A stretch of 64,000 nucleotides of DNA from a virus: IMG/VR virus record IMGVR_UViG_3300023179_000013, positions 32,001-96,000 of that record; one strand, given 5' to 3'. Below, piece by piece: positions 18,490 to 35,266 of this stretch. The notes beneath the pieces are model-generated. The model was given only the letters and a program-made list of their open reading frames with translations. It was not told the origin of the DNA and ran no database searches. The first letter of the stretch is position 1; each line of letters starts with the position of its first letter. Both the position numbers and the translations under genes were made by a program.

Positions 18490-18510
18490 ATATAACCAAT
18501 AGTGTTATAT

Positions 18511-20127: not shown

Positions 20128-22017
20128 ATGGCTGAACAAAATACAGGCTTATTTAGTAGATTAAGACGCCTATTCTCCACAGATGTTATCATCAGAAATG
20201 TAGGAGGCAATCAGTTAAAAACGGTAGACGTTGACAGAATTCAAGCTTACGGAAACGTAAAAACAAATGCTTTAATTGATAGATTCACCAAGTTGCACCG
20301 CTATGGCGCTAATATGCCATACAACCCAACAATGAACTACCAAACACTTCGTATTCAGTTATATACTGACTATGAAGCAATGGATACAGAATCAATTGTT
20401 GCCTCTGCTCTTGATATTGTTGCTGATGAATCAACATTAAAGAATGAAGCTCAAGAAGTAGTACAAATCAGAAGTGCTGACGAAAATGTTCAACGCATTT
20501 TATATAATTTATTCTATGATGTTTTAAACATAGAATTTAACTTATGGTTATGGATTCGCAATATGTGTAAATATGGCGACTTTTATTTACACCTTGAAAT
20601 TGCAGAAAAATTTGGTATTTACAGCGTAACACCATTATCAGTTTATGATATGGTTCGTGAAGAAGGTACAGATCCTACTAATCCATCTTATGTGTGTTTT
20701 AAGATTGATCCAATGGTAATTGCCGCTGGTGGTATCAACTCACGTGTTAAAGATAGAGATGGTAAGATTAAATTTGAAAATTATGAAATAGCGCATTTTA
20801 GACTATTAACTGACGCTAACTACTTGCCTTACGGACGTTCTTATATTGAGCCTGCTCGTAAGTCTTATAAGCAATATGTGTTGATGAAAGATGCTATGTT
20901 GTTACATCGCATCACCCGTGCCCCAGAAAAACGTATCTTCTACGTTGATATTGGAAACTTACCTCCGAATGAAGTTGATGGATACATGGAGCGTTTAAAG
21001 CAAAAAATGCAAAAAACTCCATTCATCGACAAAAATACTGGCGAATATAACTTACGTTATAACATGATGAACGTAATGGAGGACTTCTATATTCCACAAC
21101 GTGGCGCTAATAGCAATACTAAAATCGATACCTTAAAAGGTTTAGAGTATAATGCTATTGATGACGTAAACTTCCTCCGCGATGAAATGTTAGCAGCACT
21201 TAAAGTACCTAAAGCTTTCTTCGGATTTGAAAAAGACTTAACAGGTAAGGCTACATTAGCTGCTGAAGATATTCGTTTTGCTCGCACCGTTGAACGCATT
21301 CAACGTATTGTTGTTAGTGAATTGTATAAAATAGCCTTAGTACACTTATACGTTCAAGGATATGATGGTGAATCATTGACTAATTTCGAATTATCATTGA
21401 CTACTCCATCAATCATCTATGAACAGGAAAAAGTAGCATTATGGAAAGAAAAAATAGCATTAGCTAAAGATATCCAAGATACCAAATTATTACCTTCAGA
21501 TTGGATTTATGATAATGTATTCCAATTCAGCGAAGATCAATATGATGAATATCGTGATTTAGTACTTGAAGATATGAAACGTACCTTCCGCTTATCCCAG
21601 CTTGAAAACGAAGGTAACGACCCAGCTAAATCTGGTAAATCTTATGGTACACCACACGATCTTGCTTCATTGTATGGTAAAGGAAGAAATGGTGTTGGTG
21701 ATACAGGTGCTATCCCTCCTGGATATGACGAAAAACGTCCTGTTGGTCGTCCTGAAGAGAAATCTTCTATTGTAGGTACACAAAAAGACCCATTAGGTAA
21801 AGATAGATTAGGTAGTATTGAAAATGGTACATTATATACTGCTAATATTCCTGATGAAGGAAGCAGTACACCAAAAGGTGGTTCACCATTAGCATTAGCT
21901 GAATCTAAAAAGCATAAAGGCTTACTTGAAGGAATGAGTGCCTTCCGTAAAGAATTAGCTATTAAACCTGAACAGGAATCTACACTATTGGACGAAAAAA
22001 ATATCAAGGACGTATAA
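20128..22017 (+). CDS. Portal protein (T4 gp20-like)
   Basis: YGRSYIE, RITRAPEKRIFYVDIG, EDFYIPQR, ALKVPK and DIRFARTVERIQ. Confidence 0.92.
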   Translation: MAEQNTGLFSRLRRLFSTDVIIRNVGGNQLKTVDVDRIQAYGNVKTNALIDRFTKLHRYGANMPYNPTMNYQTLRIQLYTDYEAMDTESIVASALDIVADESTLKNEAQEVVQIRSADENVQRILYNLFYDVLNIEFNLWLWIRNMCKYGDFYLHLEIAEKFGIYSVTPLSVYDMVREEGTDPTNPSYVCFKIDPMVIAAGGINSRVKDRDGKIKFENYEIAHFRLLTDANYLPYGRSYIEPARKSYKQYVLMKDAMLLHRITRAPEKRIFYVDIGNLPPNEVDGYMERLKQKMQKTPFIDKNTGEYNLRYNMMNVMEDFYIPQRGANSNTKIDTLKGLEYNAIDDVNFLRDEMLAALKVPKAFFGFEKDLTGKATLAAEDIRFARTVERIQRIVVSELYKIALVHLYVQGYDGESLTNFELSLTTPSIIYEQEKVALWKEKIALAKDIQDTKLLPSDWIYDNVFQFSEDQYDEYRDLVLEDMKRTFRLSQLENEGNDPAKSGKSYGTPHDLASLYGKGRNGVGDTGAIPPGYDEKRPVGRPEEKSSIVGTQKDPLGKDRLGSIENGTLYTANIPDEGSSTPKGGSPLALAESKKHKGLLEGMSAFRKELAIKPEQESTLLDEKNIKDV

Positions 22018-26322: not shown

Positions 26323-26934
26323 ATGAGTAAATCATTATTAATAGATCACACCCCCTTTCAATCAGCTAAGCTTACTTTAGTTGAAGGTAAAGATACTAAA
26401 GCTGGTTTAGTTGAATTAGTAGGTAAACTACAAGCCGCTGACCAAGAAAATGGTAACAATCGTAAATATCCTTTTAAAGTTCTTAAACGTGAAGTAGACA
26501 AATATTTAGAAGGTCCTGTTAAAACACGTACTGCTTTAGGCGAATTAGATCATCCTGAAGCATCTGTTGTAAATTTAGCAAATACTTCACATGTTGTCAC
26601 TGATGTTTGGTGGGATGGAAATAACGTTATGGGTAAAATCCAATTATTACCTACACCATCAGGCAATATTGCTAAAGCATTAATTTTATCAGGTATTCCA
26701 CTTGGTATTTCATCTCGTGGTATGGGTTCAGTTAAACAGTTAGGTGAAACTGTAGAGGTACAAGACGATTTCGAATTATTATGTTGGGATTTAGTATCAG
26801 TACCATCAACCCCACAAGCATATATGCAATTAGCTGAATCTAAGAAATTTGCTTCAGTTAAAGATTATAGTAAAGTAAATGAATTAATTACCGAAATTAT
26901 TTGCGCACAAACAGGAGTATGTCCACTATGTTAA
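26323..26934 (+). CDS. Prohead maturation protease (T4 gp21-like)
   Basis: NGNNRKY, GELDHP, GISSRGMGS and DLVSVPS. Confidence 0.93.
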   Translation: MSKSLLIDHTPFQSAKLTLVEGKDTKAGLVELVGKLQAADQENGNNRKYPFKVLKREVDKYLEGPVKTRTALGELDHPEASVVNLANTSHVVTDVWWDGNNVMGKIQLLPTPSGNIAKALILSGIPLGISSRGMGSVKQLGETVEVQDDFELLCWDLVSVPSTPQAYMQLAESKKFASVKDYSKVNELITEIICAQTGVCPLC

Positions 26935-27547: not shown

Positions 27548-27555
27548 ATATTTAT
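27548..27555 (+). promoter_or_regulatory. ATATTTAT putative late promoter
   Basis: Upstream of the scaffold-capsid operon. Confidence 0.65.
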
Positions 27556-27671: not shown

Positions 27672-28952
27672 ATGAGTAACAAAAACTTATTCAAAGAGGC
27701 TATCGCCGACGCCAAAGCCGTTCGCGAAGCTGCGTTAGCAAACGCAAAAGCCGCTCTTGAAGAAGCTTTAACTCCAAAACTTCAATCCATGTTAGCTGCA
27801 AAGTTACAAGAAATGGATGGTGAAGAAGAAGTTGAAGAAGCTAAAAAGAGCGAAAAAGAAATGGAAGAAGGATTCGACACTGAAACTTTTGGTTGGGACA
27901 AAGAAGACACTACTTCCCTCAACGAAGAAGATTTAGAAGAAGACTTCGATTTATCTGAAATTTTAGCTGAGTTAAACGAAGCTGAAAAAGAAGAAGCTGG
28001 TGAAGAAGCAGAAGGCGAATCTGAAGAAGAAGAAGCCACTGAAAAAGAACCAACTGGAGAAGAAGGTGAAGAAGAAGTAGAGGTAAAAGATATGACTATC
28101 GAAGACCTCAAAGATCTTATCAAAGACATCGTATCTCAAGAAATGGGTGGTGAAGCTCCTGAAATGGGTGCTGAAGAACCTACAGACATGGGTGGTGAAG
28201 AAACCGGCGGTGCTGAAGATGAGATTGATTTAGAAGAATTGTTAGCTGAATTGGATTCTTTAGATGAATCAGAAGAGCTTGAAGAAGCTAAAAAGAAAAA
28301 AGATAAAGAAAACAAAAAAGAAGACAAAAAAGACAAGAAAATGGTAAAAGAAAATTACGAAGAAGAAGAACTTGAAGAAGGTATCTTTGGTGACTTAGGT
28401 AACAAACTTTCCGCTTGGGCTTATGACACAGATCTTGATACTATCAAATCTTGTAAAGACCAAACTAAAGGAAAAGGAATTGCTGCCTTCCAAGATTGCT
28501 TGAAAAGCAAAGGTGTTAAAATGTCTACTATTGGTACTGAACCAGGCGCTAGCGCTATGGGCGGTAACTGGAAGCAATTCGGTAAAACTACAGGTGAATT
28601 CAAAGAAGAACTTGAAGAAGCTATCGAAACTATCAACACTCTTCGTAATGAGTTAAACGAAGTTAATTTGTTAAACGCTAAGTTACTTTATGTTAATAAA
28701 ATCTTCAAAGCTAAGAATTTGACTGAATCACAAAAAGTAAAAGTAATTGCTTCATTCGATAAAGCAACTAATGTTAAAGAAGCTAAAGTAGTATTTGAAT
28801 CTCTTCAAACTGCTTTAACTGCTGCCCCTAAAAATCAAATCAAAGAAAGTCTTGGATTTGCTTCTAAAGCAGCTGGTATAGCTCCTAACAAAACTATTGT
28901 TGAGTCTAATGATGTGATTGCACGTATGCAAAAACTTGCAAACATCAAATAA
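27672..28952 (+). CDS. Prohead core/scaffold protein (T4 gp22-like)
   Basis: Acidic coiled coil between protease and capsid genes; LNEVNLLNAKLLY; C-terminal RMQKLANIK. Confidence 0.85.
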   Translation: MSNKNLFKEAIADAKAVREAALANAKAALEEALTPKLQSMLAAKLQEMDGEEEVEEAKKSEKEMEEGFDTETFGWDKEDTTSLNEEDLEEDFDLSEILAELNEAEKEEAGEEAEGESEEEEATEKEPTGEEGEEEVEVKDMTIEDLKDLIKDIVSQEMGGEAPEMGAEEPTDMGGEETGGAEDEIDLEELLAELDSLDESEELEEAKKKKDKENKKEDKKDKKMVKENYEEEELEEGIFGDLGNKLSAWAYDTDLDTIKSCKDQTKGKGIAAFQDCLKSKGVKMSTIGTEPGASAMGGNWKQFGKTTGEFKEELEEAIETINTLRNELNEVNLLNAKLLYVNKIFKAKNLTESQKVKVIASFDKATNVKEAKVVFESLQTALTAAPKNQIKESLGFASKAAGIAPNKTIVESNDVIARMQKLANIK

Positions 28953-28984: not shown

Positions 28985-30652
28985 ATGAACATTCAATCAT
29001 TATTAGAGTCATCAAACCAATACAAGGTTATTGCTGATGACGCCAAAAAACTCTCCGCTAAGTGGACCAAATCTGGTCTCTTAGAAGGATTAAAAAGCGA
29101 GAACGATCGCAATACAATGGCGATGTTACTCGAAAACCAAGCTAAGCAGTTAGTAACTGAAGCTTCATCTACTGGTAACCAATCTGGTGGTGCTGGTGCT
29201 TACAACGGTGAAAGCTGGAACGGTGTTGCCCTTCCATTAGTACGCCGTGTATTCGGTGAAATCGCTGCTAAAGAATTCGTTTCTGTACAGCCGATGAACT
29301 TACCTTCTGGTCTCGTATTCTACTTGGACTTCAAGTATGGTACTGGTGTTAAACCATTTGCCTCTGGTGGTTCTTTATATGGAGCTAATGCTTCTACAAA
29401 CGTAACTGATATTGCTTCAGCTTCATTATATGGTGCTGGTAAATTCGGTTATTCTATCAACCAATTCTCATCTTCTATTGCTGCTATCACATCATCTGCT
29501 GGTGGTGCAACTGGTGCTGCTACTTGGTTAGATTTTAACTTAGACGCTGCTTACTCTTCTTCTTTTACTAGCTTTAAAAAGATCCTTGTTCCATTACCTG
29601 CTAACTTCGATGTTAACGGTGTTCGTGCTTTCCAAGTTCTTTCAGGTTCTACTAACATTGACTTACAAGTATTGTCTGCGTTTACAACTGTATCTAACAA
29701 TACTGGTTCCTTTATCGTTACTGGTTCCTTAATTCCAGTTGCTGCTATTGGTGCTGGTGGTACTTTAGGTAATGTAACTTTATTGTATAACGTAGCTCCT
29801 TTAGCAACATCTCGTGGTGACTTTGAAGATGCTAATAACCTTAACTCTCCAGGTACTAACCCAGGTGGTTATCCAAATAACCAATCACAAACTGCAATTG
29901 CTATTCCAGAAGTTAACGTTCAGTTAAAATCTGAAGCAATCGTTGCTAAAACTCGTAAGTTGAAAGCTCAGTGGACTCCAGAATTCGCTCAAGACTTAAA
30001 CGCTTACCATAGCGTAGATGCTGAAGCTGAATTAACTGGTATCTTATCTCAGTACATCTCTATGGAGATTGACCTCGAGTTGTTAGATATGTTAATCCAG
30101 AACGCTTTCACAGTTGATTACTGGTCTGCTACTAACAACACTGCTTACAGTGTTTCTGGTACTACTGTTACTACTTCTGCATTAGCTTTCTATAACACCC
30201 AAGGTGGTTGGTTCCAAACTTTAGGAACTAAACTCCAGAAAGTTTCTAACAAAATTCACCAGTTAACTTTACGTGGTGGTGCTAACTTCTTAGTTTGCTC
30301 TCCAACTGTAGCTACTATCATCGAATCAATCCCAGGATTTGCTTCTGATGGTGATGGTGATAAAATGGAATTCAACTTCGGTATCCAAAAGGTTGGTTCT
30401 CTTAACAGTCGTTACAAGGTTTACAAGAACCCATATATGACTGAGAACGTAATCTTAATGGGTTACAAAGGTGCTCAATTCCTTGAGTGTGGTGCTGTAT
30501 TTGCTCCATACGTTCCGTTAATCATGACTCCACTTCTTTACGATCCAACAACCTTCACTCCACGTAAAGGTTTGATGACTCGTTACGCTAAGAAGATGAT
30601 CCGTCCTGACTACTACGGTAAGATCTATGTTGCTGGTTTAGATACTATCTAA
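28985..30652 (+). CDS. Major capsid protein, copy 1 (T4 gp23-like)
   Basis: LPLVRR, VQPMNLPSGLVFYL, KTRKLKAQWTPEFAQDL, YVPL and GLMTRYA; C-ending codon bias. Confidence 0.95.
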   Translation: MNIQSLLESSNQYKVIADDAKKLSAKWTKSGLLEGLKSENDRNTMAMLLENQAKQLVTEASSTGNQSGGAGAYNGESWNGVALPLVRRVFGEIAAKEFVSVQPMNLPSGLVFYLDFKYGTGVKPFASGGSLYGANASTNVTDIASASLYGAGKFGYSINQFSSSIAAITSSAGGATGAATWLDFNLDAAYSSSFTSFKKILVPLPANFDVNGVRAFQVLSGSTNIDLQVLSAFTTVSNNTGSFIVTGSLIPVAAIGAGGTLGNVTLLYNVAPLATSRGDFEDANNLNSPGTNPGGYPNNQSQTAIAIPEVNVQLKSEAIVAKTRKLKAQWTPEFAQDLNAYHSVDAEAELTGILSQYISMEIDLELLDMLIQNAFTVDYWSATNNTAYSVSGTTVTTSALAFYNTQGGWFQTLGTKLQKVSNKIHQLTLRGGANFLVCSPTVATIIESIPGFASDGDGDKMEFNFGIQKVGSLNSRYKVYKNPYMTENVILMGYKGAQFLECGAVFAPYVPLIMTPLLYDPTTFTPRKGLMTRYAKKMIRPDYYGKIYVAGLDTI

Positions 30653-30668
30653 TCTGGCTTCTAAATAA

Positions 30669-30698
30669 AAACGACCAGGTGTAAAAGCCTGGTCGTTT
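30669..30698 (+). terminator. Stem-loop between the capsid paralogs (attenuator/terminator)
   Basis: AAACGACCAGG-tgtaaaag-CCTGGTCGTTT. Confidence 0.7.
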
Positions 30699-30726
30699 AT
30701 TAAAAAACAATTTAAAACATTCTTAA

Positions 30727-32433
30727 ATGAATATTCAATCTCTGTTAGAGTCATCTAATCAATACAAAGTTATTGCTGATGACGCAAAAAAGCTTACCCA
30801 AAAGTGGGTTAAGTCTGGCCTTTTAGAAGGCATTAAGAGTGAGAATGAGCGTAATACGTTATCCATATTATTGGAAAACCAAGCTAAACAATTAGTAACC
30901 GAAGCATCTTCCACAGGTAACCAAGCTGGTGGTGCAGGTGCTTACAATGGTGAAAGCTGGAACGGTGTAGCTTTACCATTAGTACGTAGAGTATTTGGTG
31001 AGATTGCTGCTAAAGAATTCGTTAGTGTTCAACCAATGAATTTACCTTCTGGTCTTGTGTTTTATTTGGATTTTAAGTACGGTACTAATGATGTGCATTT
31101 TACCCAAAATGCTTCATTATATGGTGCTAACGCTACCACAAACGTAACTGACATTACATCTGAATCTCTTTATGGTCCTGGACAATTTGGTTATTCTATC
31201 AATAACTTCTCAGCTTCTGTTTCAAATGCACTTACAGGTGCTCTTGCCACATGGGCTGACTTTAACTTAAATGCAGATTATTCTGCTTCTGCAGCAGCTA
31301 ATTTGTATAGAAAGTTATTAGTTCCATTACCAGCAAACTCTGACGTAAATGCAGTTCGTTCATTTTTTATTAGTGGTAGTACAATATCTGGTTCAGGAGC
31401 TAATGCTTGGGAAGCTATTGGAAGTTATACTATATCTAATATCTTACAAGAATTTACTACTGTAGCAAATAATACTGCTTCATTCTTATTACCTTCATCT
31501 TCATTTGTTAAGATTGTAGGAACAGCTCCAACCAGTTCTAATGGTGTTCAAACAGCAGTATTGTACTACACAGTACAACCTTTAGCAACATCACGTGGTG
31601 ATTTTGAAGACGCTAGCAACTCTAACTCCCCAGGTACTAATCCTGGTGGTTATCCTAGTAATTTAAGTCAAACCACAATTTCAATTCCTGAAGTTAATGT
31701 TCAGTTAAAATCTGAAGCTATTGTAGCTAAAACTCGTAAGTTGAAAGCACAATGGACACCTGAATTTGCCCAGGATTTGAATGCTTATCATTCAGTAGAC
31801 GCTGAATCTGAATTAACAGGAATTTTATCTCAATACATTTCTATGGAAATTGATCTTGAGTTATTAGACATGTTAATCCAAAACGCCTTTACTGTTGATT
31901 ATTGGTCTGCTACTAACAACACTGCTTATGGTGTTTCTGGTACTACTGTTACTACTACTAACTTAGCCTTTTACAATACTCAAGGTGGTTGGTTCCAAAC
32001 ACTTGGTACCAAATTACAAAAAGTATCAAATAAAATCCATCAGTTAACCTTACGTGGAGGTGCAAACTTCCTTGTATGTTCTCCAACTGTTGCTACAATC
32101 ATCGAATCCATTCCTGGATTTGCTAGTGATGGCACTGGAGAAAAGATGGAATTTAACTTTGGTATTCAAAAAGTAGGTAGCTTAAATAGCCGCTACAAAG
32201 TTTATAAGAACCCGTATATGACCGAAAACGTAATCCTCATGGGTTACAAAGGCAATCAGTTCTTAGAATGTGGTGCTGTGTTTGCTCCTTATGTACCTTT
32301 AATCATGACTCCATTGTTGTACGATCCAACTACCTTTACTCCACGTAAGGGCTTGATGACTCGCTACGCCAAGAAAATGATCCGTCCTGATTATTATGGT
32401 AAAATTTATGTAGCTGGTTTAGATACTATCTAA
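30727..32433 (+). CDS. Major capsid protein paralog, copy 2
   Basis: Near-identical N- and C-terminal regions to copy 1 with a divergent central domain. Confidence 0.93.
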   Translation: MNIQSLLESSNQYKVIADDAKKLTQKWVKSGLLEGIKSENERNTLSILLENQAKQLVTEASSTGNQAGGAGAYNGESWNGVALPLVRRVFGEIAAKEFVSVQPMNLPSGLVFYLDFKYGTNDVHFTQNASLYGANATTNVTDITSESLYGPGQFGYSINNFSASVSNALTGALATWADFNLNADYSASAAANLYRKLLVPLPANSDVNAVRSFFISGSTISGSGANAWEAIGSYTISNILQEFTTVANNTASFLLPSSSFVKIVGTAPTSSNGVQTAVLYYTVQPLATSRGDFEDASNSNSPGTNPGGYPSNLSQTTISIPEVNVQLKSEAIVAKTRKLKAQWTPEFAQDLNAYHSVDAESELTGILSQYISMEIDLELLDMLIQNAFTVDYWSATNNTAYGVSGTTVTTTNLAFYNTQGGWFQTLGTKLQKVSNKIHQLTLRGGANFLVCSPTVATIIESIPGFASDGTGEKMEFNFGIQKVGSLNSRYKVYKNPYMTENVILMGYKGNQFLECGAVFAPYVPLIMTPLLYDPTTFTPRKGLMTRYAKKMIRPDYYGKIYVAGLDTI

Positions 32434-32472
32434 TCTAGAACAACATAATTAACCCCGTAAGGTTAAACATTT

Positions 32473-32503
32473 AGAACCCGACCCCGTAAGGTCGGGTTCT
32501 TTT
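32473..32503 (+). terminator. Rho-independent terminator after the capsid genes
   Basis: AGAACCCGACC-ccgtaa-GGTCGGGTTCT followed by TTT. Confidence 0.85.
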
Positions 32504-32506
32504 GTT

Positions 32507-32514
32507 ATATTTAT
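32507..32514 (+). promoter_or_regulatory. ATATTTAT putative late promoter
   Basis: Upstream of phoH, right after a terminator. Confidence 0.65.
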
Positions 32515-32529
32515 ATCAAATATAGCTGC

Positions 32530-33198
32530 ATGAGGGAACCAAATCGTGAGCGTAAAACAGAAATTAAGTTAATTAATGCTGTCCAATTAAATGAAGAACA
32601 AAAAGAAGCAAAACGATTAATAATTGAAAACCAGGTAGTAATTATAACAGGTAGAGCAGGTTCAGGTAAATCATTAGTATGCGCACAAGCCGCATTAGAC
32701 TTCCTTAAGAAAAAACAAATTGAGTGTATTTACAATACACGCGCTGCTGTAGAAGTTGGTAAATCATTGGGATTTTTACCTGGTGATATCAATGGTAAAT
32801 TTGATCCATATATGGAGGCACTTATTGAAAACCTTAACAAATGCTGTTCAGATAAAAAAGAGGTAGCCAAACTAATTGAAGAAAATAAAGTCAAAGCACT
32901 ACCAGTTCAATTCATCAGGGGTAAAACTATCGACGATATATTAATAGTAGAAGAAGCACAAAACCTTACTAAAGGTGAAATGTTAGCCATATTGACTCGC
33001 CTCGGTAAAACTGGTAAGATCGTTATTAACGGTGACAATGAACAAACCGATATAAAATCAAATACAGGCGAAATAAACGGCTTAAGTTACGTAATCGAAT
33101 TATCCAAAAAAATAGAAGAAATCAAGTGGATTAAATTAAAAGAAAACCACCGTTCTGATCTAGTGGGTAAGATACTCGAATATGAATATGGAAAGTAA
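32530..33198 (+). CDS. phoH: PhoH-like ATPase
   Basis: GRAGSGKS, LGFLPG, FIRGKT, VEEAQN, LTRLG, GDNEQTD and NHRS. Confidence 0.92.
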   Translation: MREPNRERKTEIKLINAVQLNEEQKEAKRLIIENQVVIITGRAGSGKSLVCAQAALDFLKKKQIECIYNTRAAVEVGKSLGFLPGDINGKFDPYMEALIENLNKCCSDKKEVAKLIEENKVKALPVQFIRGKTIDDILIVEEAQNLTKGEMLAILTRLGKTGKIVINGDNEQTDIKSNTGEINGLSYVIELSKKIEEIKWIKLKENHRSDLVGKILEYEYGK

Positions 33199-33207
33199 TA
33201 GCCATTA

Positions 33208-33215
33208 ATATTTAT
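33208..33215 (+). promoter_or_regulatory. ATATTTAT putative late promoter
   Basis: Upstream of the neck gene. Confidence 0.65.
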
Positions 33216-33238: not shown

Positions 33239-35266
33239 ATGGCAATTAATCTAAGAGACCTATACGATCAGTATAATGGTAACCCAAATAAATTAACACC
33301 AGTAAAGGGTAATACACCATTTGAATATTACACAAATGACCCGGAATTTACCACGGATGCATTAGGTGTTGCTCGTTTCGTAGCACAACGTTTAGGTGTT
33401 ACTGGTCCTCAATATAATTTTGCAACTCAAAAATTTAACTCAAGCGCAGCTACATTAAATATTACTGATTTAACAGTATATGCAGCATTTGAAGAAGCCG
33501 TTACTACTTATGGTAATTTAGTTTACCAATACAAAATTAGAGACCAATATATTAATATGGAAGGATCGGATACATTGCCATTCTTTCATAATATTATTTC
33601 ATATGTTAACAGTAATGATGTACAATCTCCTGTAACTTGGTCTGCAGCTAGATTAGCAACATGGGCTGAAGTAGATTACGATCCTGCCTATTCACAATCA
33701 ATAGTAGATGGTGAAATTTGGGCTATATCTTCATCAATAAAAGATTACATTGCTCCTAACTTTGATTTAATTAAATCATTTAACTTAGCTGATAACTATA
33801 GAAGTTATAATGGTGGAACTACATATACAACATACAATTTAAGTTCATTTGTATATAATCAGTTTAATAATGTAGGTGGAGCTACTGTATTTACTCCTTA
33901 TTACAATCCAAACAGTGGATCATATTCATTTGGTACACAAACAGATGGTTATACTTATGGTGTAACAGGTAGTAATGGGGTACAAGTTCAACTTATTTTA
34001 ACTTCATCTACTACTCAAACAGACACAGCAACTAAACTTTATGTTGTAACAGGTAGTACAACAAGCATAACAGCTTATAATATTGGAAATAAAATAGCAG
34101 GAGCTTCTTTAGGTACATTTGGAACAGCTCTTACAGCTAATACAGGTTCAGGTGCTACAGTAGCTTTTACTTCTTCTATATCTAGCTATGATATTACTAA
34201 TTTTAAAATAAATAACTCATCTTTATTTTCTAATGTAACATCAGGTTCAACTGCTTCAAGACCAACAGGAAAATCTCACGTATATTTTTATACTACAACT
34301 AATACAATAGCAGGAGGATCTCAATTCTTTGTTTCTGCTTCTATAACACAACCTATACCAACAGTATACATTCAATCTAACATTAATCCATCATTAAATA
34401 ATAAACTATTAAGTAATAACTTAACAACTATTACTTCTCGTATTGCTGAAGATTATGCTGCTGAAGCTAATGTTGGTGGATATTATGATGTGAAAACAGG
34501 TTCTCTTGATATGGTGGCAGGTCAACAAAATTATAATTTAAATGAATGGGCTGCTGCTTCTGCTTCATTAAGTGAAGGTGATTCAATAGAAATTAGAAGA
34601 ATATTCTATCAGTCCCCACCAGCCATTGTTCGTTATTTTGACCCATATGCTGGTACAGGTACAGGTATCCAATCATTGCTTGAAACATTTGGATTTGGTC
34701 AGTTTTCTCCTGGTATTAATTTCTTATTAATGCCAATTTACTTTGACGTTCAAAAAGTACAAGCAATTGAATTAAACGACCAGATAAGAAAAGCGGATTA
34801 TTCATTTGATTTAAGAAATAATCAATTGAAAATATTCCCTATCCCTAATGAAGATAAAAAATTATATTTTGAGTACATTACTATGAGTGATAAAAACCAA
34901 CTAGTAAGAGATACTAGAAAAAATGTGGTTACTGATATAATGAACGTACCTTATAGAAACCCAATTTATTCTAATATTAATACAGTTGGTAGAACTTGGA
35001 TTTATAAATATACTTTAGCATTGTGCCGTGAAATTGAAGCTCACATTCGTATTCAATATGCAAACTTGAGTATTCAAGGTATTGGACCACTTCAAGGATC
35101 AGAATTAATTACAGATGCTAGAACTGAGAAAGAAAATTTATTAACCGAATTAAAGGAAATGTTAAATGAAGTATCACGTAAAGGTCAATTGGAACGTAAG
35201 CAACAAGAGGCTCAATTTACTCGCGATACATTATCGAATGTTCCTTTAAACATATATATAATGTAA
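33239..35266 (+). CDS. Neck/head-tail adaptor (gp13-like) with Ser/Thr-rich insertion
   Basis: Position after capsid genes; AFEEAVTTY, WIYKYTLAL and ELITDARTEKE. Confidence 0.7.
   Translation: MAINLRDLYDQYNGNPNKLTPVKGNTPFEYYTNDPEFTTDALGVARFVAQRLGVTGPQYNFATQKFNSSAATLNITDLTVYAAFEEAVTTYGNLVYQYKIRDQYINMEGSDTLPFFHNIISYVNSNDVQSPVTWSAARLATWAEVDYDPAYSQSIVDGEIWAISSSIKDYIAPNFDLIKSFNLADNYRSYNGGTTYTTYNLSSFVYNQFNNVGGATVFTPYYNPNSGSYSFGTQTDGYTYGVTGSNGVQVQLILTSSTTQTDTATKLYVVTGSTTSITAYNIGNKIAGASLGTFGTALTANTGSGATVAFTSSISSYDITNFKINNSSLFSNVTSGSTASRPTGKSHVYFYTTTNTIAGGSQFFVSASITQPIPTVYIQSNINPSLNNKLLSNNLTTITSRIAEDYAAEANVGGYYDVKTGSLDMVAGQQNYNLNEWAAASASLSEGDSIEIRRIFYQSPPAIVRYFDPYAGTGTGIQSLLETFGFGQFSPGINFLLMPIYFDVQKVQAIELNDQIRKADYSFDLRNNQLKIFPIPNEDKKLYFEYITMSDKNQLVRDTRKNVVTDIMNVPYRNPIYSNINTVGRTWIYKYTLALCREIEAHIRIQYANLSIQGIGPLQGSELITDARTEKENLLTELKEMLNEVSRKGQLERKQQEAQFTRDTLSNVPLNIYIM

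Follow-up and report, generated by a model that had tools for sequence, protein, structure and literature searches.

Why would a T4-like phage carry two intact major capsid protein (MCP) genes one behind the other? This question is raised by a 64,000-nucleotide stretch of viral DNA (positions 32,001 to 96,000 of the IMG/VR record IMGVR_UViG_3300023179_000013), which was analysed along its whole 64-kb length and is referred to here as the window or WIN. The record is a complete phage genome of 168,946 bp with direct terminal repeats, obtained by metagenome assembly. In a previous reading of the sequence alone (the sequence-only reading), the second gene was proposed to make a lower-abundance capsomer by read-through, either a nascent vertex protein or a mosaic-surface variant. 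The present analysis points to a partly different answer. The downstream gene, c2, may well belong to a conserved second lineage of shell proteins and not be a recent or accidental duplicate of the upstream gene, c1, a view that we hold at about even odds. With a probability of roughly 0.5, its product would be a shell subunit that read-through supplies at a lower dose and that most likely builds special capsomers at the vertices. The features on which the argument turns are the following.

28985-30652, plus strand: c1, main major capsid protein of the gp23 family, 555 amino acids (aa), PF07068 E-value 6e-77
29345-29884, plus strand: insertion (I) domain of c1 with its linkers, aa 121-300
30727-32433, plus strand: c2, second major capsid protein paralog of the gp23 family, 568 aa, PF07068 E-value 4e-78
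31087-31665, plus strand: c2-type I domain with its linkers, aa 121-313

The description of two intact gp23-like genes holds, since both open reading frames (ORFs) are complete and both products belong to the Gp23 family (PF07068, cut-off 24.4 bits), whose HK97 fold has the I domain set into the E loop. The phrog_138 major head protein was also matched in a PHROG search, and the T4 gp23 chains of the PDB were matched by both proteins with E-values of about 1e-29. The two proteins are 80% identical overall, and the differences are concentrated in the middle, as had been noticed: 111 of the 120 N-terminal residues and 246 of the 255 C-terminal residues are identical, whereas residues 121-300 include 86 identities at 153 aligned positions plus 27 gap columns (about 53-56%). 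The sequences flanking this divergent block can be aligned to the parts of T4 gp23 that border the T4 I domain, so the block corresponds to the surface I domain and its linkers. The shell cores are 92-97% identical (97% for the mature core), and the only large differences between c1 and c2 lie in the I domain and in the propeptide, which is discarded. An AlphaFold2 (AF2) monomer model of c2 was poor (mean predicted local distance difference test score, pLDDT, of 57) and confident only in the I domain and parts of the A domain, with a pLDDT of about 80 for much of residues 160-290. The best Foldseek matches of this model were T4 gp23 chains.

The sequence-only reading had also noted that synonymous sites differ widely and had suggested calculating dN/dS (nonsynonymous over synonymous divergence) by domain. 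Nei-Gojobori estimates between the copies agree with that observation, with dS values of 1.5, 1.0 and 1.4 for the N-terminal, central and C-terminal regions, and with dN/dS of 0.04 at both ends and 0.39 in the centre. Saturated dS together with low dN/dS means that both genes are functional, being under purifying selection, and that there has been no recent gene conversion. Recent conversion was considered as the origin of the near-identical cores and was rejected, because synonymous sites are saturated throughout and the longest nucleotide run shared identically by the copies is 26 nt, with a nucleotide identity of only about 80%. In this window, codon identity is modestly enriched in three patches (39/56 vs 158/302, p 0.02), but not in L018 and L032, two related loci that also carry a tandem pair. 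As the genome was assembled from a metagenome, the tandem might result from a misjoining of two strain variants of a single gene, and this artefact was considered as well. It was rejected: more than 15 independent contigs, which come from different samples and assemblers, show this tandem layout, the hairpin in the spacer is conserved, the ORFs are complete, codon usage differs consistently between the copies, and the low nucleotide identity and short shared runs also speak against it. Its probability is practically nil.

Regarding assembly, the propeptide has the same length in both proteins, and the segment ...QLVTE/ASSTG... (residues 55-64; the slash marks the predicted cut) is identical in c1 and c2. 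The site VTE/A predicted in both fits the (L/I/V)-x-E pattern of the prohead protease, and a phrog_207 protease gene is located nearby. The equal propeptide length, the common predicted site and the near-identical HK97-fold core suggest that both proteins should enter the same prohead.

The pair is not a peculiarity of this genome. Among 79 related IMG/VR loci, tandem pairs are also present in L016, L017, L018 and L032, and a search with the c2 I domain added the tandem loci L083 and L108. In a collection of 5.8 billion proteins from public metagenomes, the c2-type I domain was found in about 75 protein clusters (more than 165 bits, 560-590 aa, with a clear gap from the remaining matches). All eight c2-type proteins that were looked up (from seven of these clusters, plus P0086, which is just below the score break) are products of the downstream member of a Gp23-Gp23 pair with the same surrounding gene order, and the c2-type cases of IMG/VR are downstream in their pairs too (L018, L016, L017, L083 and L108). 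A tree of the I domains places 11 of the 13 downstream copies in a clade of their own (approximate likelihood-ratio test, aLRT, 94; 100 for the first four), while the partners of these c2 genes carry at least five different c1 I-domain types. Forcing the I domains of c1 and c2 from WIN to be sisters was rejected (approximately unbiased, AU, test, p 0.002). The pairs of L032 and of a further locus, L120, fall outside the clade and may be separate events.

Moreover, the c2 I domain is better conserved than that of c1 in the same phages, with a mean identity of 72% vs 58%; between L018 and L116, for instance, the values are 89% for c2 and 63% for c1. The I domains of c2 orthologs show dN/dS values of 0.22-0.48, which corresponds to purifying selection, and the I domain is hypervariable among the c1 genes of related phages. 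The greater conservation in c2 argues against a variable-surface role and fits a fixed structural job. In light of these data, calling the second copy nascent was wrong, as c2 appears to come from a long-established and widespread lineage that has an I-domain type of its own, and the idea of a mosaic-surface variant is weakened. Many close relatives, such as L019 and L015, have a single capsid gene, no two-copy record was found in the phage isolate collection, and no description of near-identical tandem gp23 genes was found in the literature searched, in which the coverage of subscription journals was limited.

The I-domain data also bear on a different explanation, in which a minor amount of c2 mixes with c1 within hexamers and yields a mosaic surface with two kinds of I-domain bumps, for example for the sub-stoichiometric binding of a decoration protein or an environmental ligand. 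Such hexamers seem feasible on steric grounds, given that the T4 I domain sits on the core of its neighbour and that the cores are 97% identical here. However, a more conserved I domain in c2 is the opposite of what would be expected for a variable surface, and the coexistence of one fixed c2 I type with so many c1 types is easier to understand if c2 I domains contact each other. Mixed capsomers are thus regarded as rather unlikely.

The amino-acid and synonymous histories of the two genes are in conflict. Synonymous similarity was expressed as r, which measures how far codon identity at identical residues exceeds what codon usage alone would predict. For the mature core, the own partner is the best amino-acid match of c2 in 8 of 11 phages (0.93-0.98), compared with about 0.90 against the c2 of other lineages. 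The synonymous sites behave differently: the mean r is 0.30 between c2 genes (maxima 0.39-0.63; 11 c2 genes), 0.16 between c2 and its own partner, and 0.13 between c2 and other c1 or single-copy genes. In a bootstrap with four phages, the synonymous similarity among c2 genes exceeded that across c1 and c2 (P 0.005). At codon positions 1+2, the AU test rejects a clade of c2 genes (p 1e-8 with two of them, 0.009 with four), whereas at third positions partner sisterhood costs 28 log-likelihood units (AU p 0.07). The third-position tree and AU test were uninformative with three pairs only and became informative after adding c2 genes. The paralog pairs are outliers in this respect, with mature-core identities of 97-99% and r of 0.07-0.19, while orthologs at 95% identity or more keep an r of 0.59-0.93. 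The hypervariable patches at aa 60-80 and 383-402 are near-identical in partners and differ between phages (in the three lineages first examined), and in L018 and L032 they have scrambled synonymous sites.

The nucleotide backbone of c1 is closest to the single MCP gene of L019 (r 0.62), whose phoH is 98% identical. The c2-like patches in c1 comprise residues 65-77, 272-305 and 383-402, and the rare residues V310, T383, I446 and D553 are common to c1 and c2. Along its length (28985-30652), c1 is a mosaic with respect to L019:2894-4531, as long L019-like synonymous stretches are broken by patches that match c2. The synonymous divergence between c1 and L019 is also greater in the I domain than in the core, which suggests a cassette-like exchange of I domains between phages. 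As for the pair in L032:4255-7614, it has sister I domains (70% identical) and cores that are 98-99% identical, with fully scrambled synonymous sites (r between -0.02 and 0.07 by segment set), and it looks like a separate duplication with the same pattern. Switches between the TCN and AGY families of serine codons were tried as markers of c2 orthology and discarded, being homoplastic across the clade and unusable.

In its core amino acids c2 follows its partner, whereas in its synonymous sites and I domain it follows other c2 genes, which suggests that the two proteins have to fit each other in one lattice. This pattern would indicate the co-evolution of two co-assembling proteins. In our reading, c2 is an old paralog lineage in which selection has kept the core matched to that of the partner, and the route to this match could have been parallel substitution or old, patchy conversion.

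The same observations could be explained by repeated recent duplication in each phage, followed by fast synonymous recoding and replacement of the I domain from a shared pool. Selection against the recombinational deletion of tandem repeats in a highly recombinogenic phage is an example of what could drive the recoding. This scenario would account for the lineage-specific rare residues that partners share (the four listed above), for the amino-acid-identical and synonymously scrambled patches of L018 and L032, for the 7-19% synonymous signal that paralogs keep at 97-99% core identity against 59-93% in orthologs at 95% or more, and for the L032 pair, which looks separate in both core and I domain. 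On the other hand, c2 genes are closer at synonymous sites to each other (0.30, up to 0.63) than to their partners (0.16) across the 11 genes, the bootstrap with four phages goes in the same direction, and synonymous change in c2 would have to be about 10 times faster (an estimate from r 0.07 vs 0.62). Repeated duplication is considered improbable.

A more specific proposal, tentative and somewhat short of even odds, is that concerted evolution acts here on the proteins only and that c2 is an independent, younger-looking re-invention of a vertex protein, an intermediate towards gp24. Cores and contact patches would be kept matched within each phage, and the synonymous sites would look like those of distant relatives. 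Selection against the collapse of tandem repeats by recombination, in a recombination-rich T4-type phage, may reinforce the pattern.

With regard to expression, the sequence-only reading attributed a preference for C-ending codons to copy 1 and for T-ending ones to copy 2. This stands at two-fold NNY codons (Y being C or T), where c1 uses C in 65% of cases and ranks first of the 51 genes in the window, while c2 uses C in 35% and ranks seventh, compared with 23% in the other genes pooled (Fisher p 4e-6). It does not stand at four-fold sites, at which both copies prefer T. The lower abundance proposed for copy 2 receives indirect support, as NNC codon adaptation is lower in c2 than in its partner c1 in 13 of 13 tandem pairs, which are phylogenetically non-independent. 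The adaptation of c2 above the background could mean more than 55 copies per head, and this would favour the mixed hexamers mentioned above. Three elements around the two genes may be relevant for their transcription.

27548-27555, plus strand: ATATTTAT motif before the scaffold gene, the nearest one upstream of c1; putative late-promoter element
30669-30698, plus strand: terminator-like hairpin with a 12-bp stem (-20.3 kcal/mol), followed by TTTATT; putative attenuator
32449-32504, plus strand: two hairpins (32449-32466 and 32473-32500) and a T-run; strong terminator-like end of the capsid operon

The spacer between c1 and c2 (30653-30726) thus contains the hairpin that had been described, and no ATATTTAT motif was found in it or directly before c1. 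This hairpin has the traits of a Rho-independent terminator, namely a GC-containing stem-loop followed by a U-rich tract, although a simple terminator scan reported it on the minus strand only, since the T-run of the plus strand is interrupted. Every c1-c2 spacer that was checked has a hairpin with a T-rich run behind it, and an alignment of nine spacers showed compensatory changes in two of the eight hairpin pairs. Partial termination could therefore take place at this hairpin, and expression of c2 by read-through, as suggested earlier, fits this hairpin together with the lack of an own promoter motif for c2 in the window.

The motif ATATTTAT is probably the late-promoter element of this phage. 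Of its 25 copies in the window, 21 are on the plus strand, and of these 21, 18 lie between genes or at a stop codon, for the most part with a start codon 20-35 nt further on. The T4 late promoter is TATAAATA, to which ATATTTAT is comparable. The copy at 27548 is likely the start of a transcription unit comprising the scaffold gene, c1 and c2, provided that it acts as a promoter. Downstream of c2, the next ATATTTAT is located at 32507, 23 nt upstream of phoH, and the double-hairpin layout after c2 is the same in L018 and L032. The motif often occurs as ATATTTATA, and its plus-strand sites include 1178, 9596, 18482, 20102, 22025, 27548 and 32507, with further sites at 33208, 55281, 56335 and 58654. 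The terminator hairpins (32449-32500, and those after c2 in L018 and L032) repeatedly show the loop motif CCCCGTAAGG, in which C-G closes a GTAA tetraloop, on stems that are unrelated, and this loop also appears in the c1-c2 spacer hairpins of L018 and L116. In the spacer of L120 (L120:3910-4000), whose tandem pair is a more distant one, a hairpin with a T7 run is followed by an own ATATTTAT about 27 nt before the start of c2, so that c2 may have an independent promoter in some lineages.

The promoter motif of L120 would also suit the possibility that c1 and c2 are alternative capsid genes for different hosts or conditions, with particles made mainly of one or the other, or, in a variant of this idea, that c2 serves as a spare with which the phage evades a host defence that senses the capsid protein. 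That the main differences are in the exposed I domain is in line with this. However, in this window c2 is placed behind c1 in one unit with no promoter motif of its own, partner-matched cores and patches are not needed by proteins that never share a shell, and the spare would not escape a sensing defence as long as the trigger protein is still expressed. Alternative use of the two genes is therefore very improbable.

Returning to the preferred reading, a lower-dose shell subunit made by read-through, the proposed course of events is as follows. c2 would have arisen from a gp23-type capsid gene within the clade of T4-like phages related to Flavobacterium phage immuto, and would then have been inherited or exchanged as a distinct gene, always immediately behind the main capsid gene. 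Transcription probably starts at the 27548 motif and covers the scaffold gene, c1 and c2, and the dose of c2 would be lowered by the spacer hairpin, which would let only part of the transcripts pass, and by its less adapted codons. Both proteins would enter the same prohead, where c2 would form its own capsomers that dock into the c1 lattice, most likely pentameric vertices like those of T4 gp24. The N-terminal N-fist of T4 contacts subunits of two capsomers, and the T4 I domain lies on a neighbouring subunit within its own capsomer (PMC9958956). In these pairs, partners agree in the patch that corresponds to the N-fist and can differ in the I domain, which fits separate c2 capsomers in a c1 lattice. 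The vertex is the leading guess for their location because pentamers are the only geometrically distinct capsomers, and by analogy with T4 this location is plausible.

Several points weigh against this reading. The mutations that allow T4 to bypass gp24, with gp23 making the pentamers, map to the A domain (PMC9958956), where c2 hardly differs from c1; there is also no obvious pentamer determinant in the sequence outside the I domain. The single-gene relatives L019 and L015 close their shells without c2, so a vertex protein is not required. In addition, with a codon rank of 7 out of 51, c2 may be fairly abundant, the agreement of the 13 tandem pairs is lessened by their common ancestry, and the motif in the L120 spacer means that read-through is not the sole route of expression in the family. 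Finally, the topology test with third positions is borderline.

The two capsid genes are part of a head gene module, whose other members in the window are listed below.

Start at 18502: large terminase
Start at 20128: portal
26323-26934: prohead protease (phrog_207, E-value 4e-53)
27672-28952, plus strand: acidic 426-aa protein in the position of the scaffold (T4 gp22), between the protease and c1
Start at 32530: PhoH, directly after the capsid pair
33239-35266: 675-aa protein after phoH, with no Pfam match here

The gene order around the scaffold position is syntenic in all related loci. The acidic protein found there has no match of its own in Pfam or PHROG, and its position and composition point to a scaffold (T4 gp22) role. 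The 675-aa protein probably corresponds to the neck protein gp13, given that related loci have counterparts annotated with Phage_T4_gp13 (PF26809) and that the protein itself has a weak PHROG match to a head-tail adaptor. In L117:5898-9221, a 1107-aa gene without Pfam match takes the place of phoH after c2. A third gp23- or gp24-like gene was not found in the complete genome, where c1 and c2 are the sole gp23-like matches.

These pairs may be of interest beyond this phage. For a capsid-corner protein derived from an MCP gene, the textbook example is T4 gp24, in which divergence from gp23 to about 20% identity hides the steps. The c1/c2 pairs allow the same kind of event to be examined at 80% identity and in dozens of natural pairs, and the c2 lineage may show how a specialised capsid-corner protein evolves. 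They also make it possible to test which parts of the HK97 fold set the lattice position and how mutually fitting subunits co-evolve. For phylogenies based on gp23 as a marker, caution is advisable, since amplicons could come from either copy and the protein and nucleotide trees disagree.

Among cultured phages, the nearest relative is immuto, which has a single MCP gene and whose kinship suggests Flavobacteriia as hosts. Its MCP is 55% identical to c2, and the order protease, scaffold, MCP ... PhoH is the same. Between MCP and phoH (L001:9622-11545), immuto has an 89-aa ORF annotated as 'tail fiber protein' and a 546-aa protein with about six Thr/Gly-rich repeats of some 80 aa, which could be a head decoration or fibre protein. 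The 546-aa gene was considered as a diverged gp24 and rejected, as its product is a Thr/Gly-rich repeat protein and not gp23-like. Immuto, Sinorhizobium phage PhiM9 and the cyanomyoviruses, as the nearest cultured phages, lack gp24 and, unlike the window, have one capsid gene. The pentamers of PhiM9 are thought to consist of gp23 itself (PMC4621102), and the cyanomyoviruses lack gene 24 (PMC2984593).

Escherichia phage JS98 (Dhakavirus) provides another comparison within the same capsid superfamily, since it has two adjacent intact paralogs of gene 24. In that case, however, the vertex gene and not the MCP gene is doubled, and the copies are 56% identical along their whole length, a pattern unlike the near-identical cores and single divergent domain of c1 and c2. 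The closest parallel is the gp23/gp24 pair of T4, in which gp24 was derived from the capsid gene by duplication (PMC9958956). As in that pair, a gp23-fold paralog lies directly downstream of the MCP gene (the order in JS98 being protease, scaffold, MCP, paralog), and the paralog is expected at a lower dose; the T4 gp24-type vertex protein forms pentamers at 11 vertices, with about 55 copies per head. The differences are in degree of divergence and in processing: T4 gp23 and gp24 are about 20% identical and the gp24 propeptide has 10 residues, whereas c1 and c2 are 80% identical and share a full-length propeptide. An orthology of c2 to gp24 was rejected, as c2 matches JS98 gp23 with 33% identity (E-value 2e-31) and JS98 gp24 with 24% (E-value 4e-6). 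Being closer to gp23 and nested inside the immuto-like gp23 clade, c2 represents an independent, later duplication and not an ortholog of gp24.

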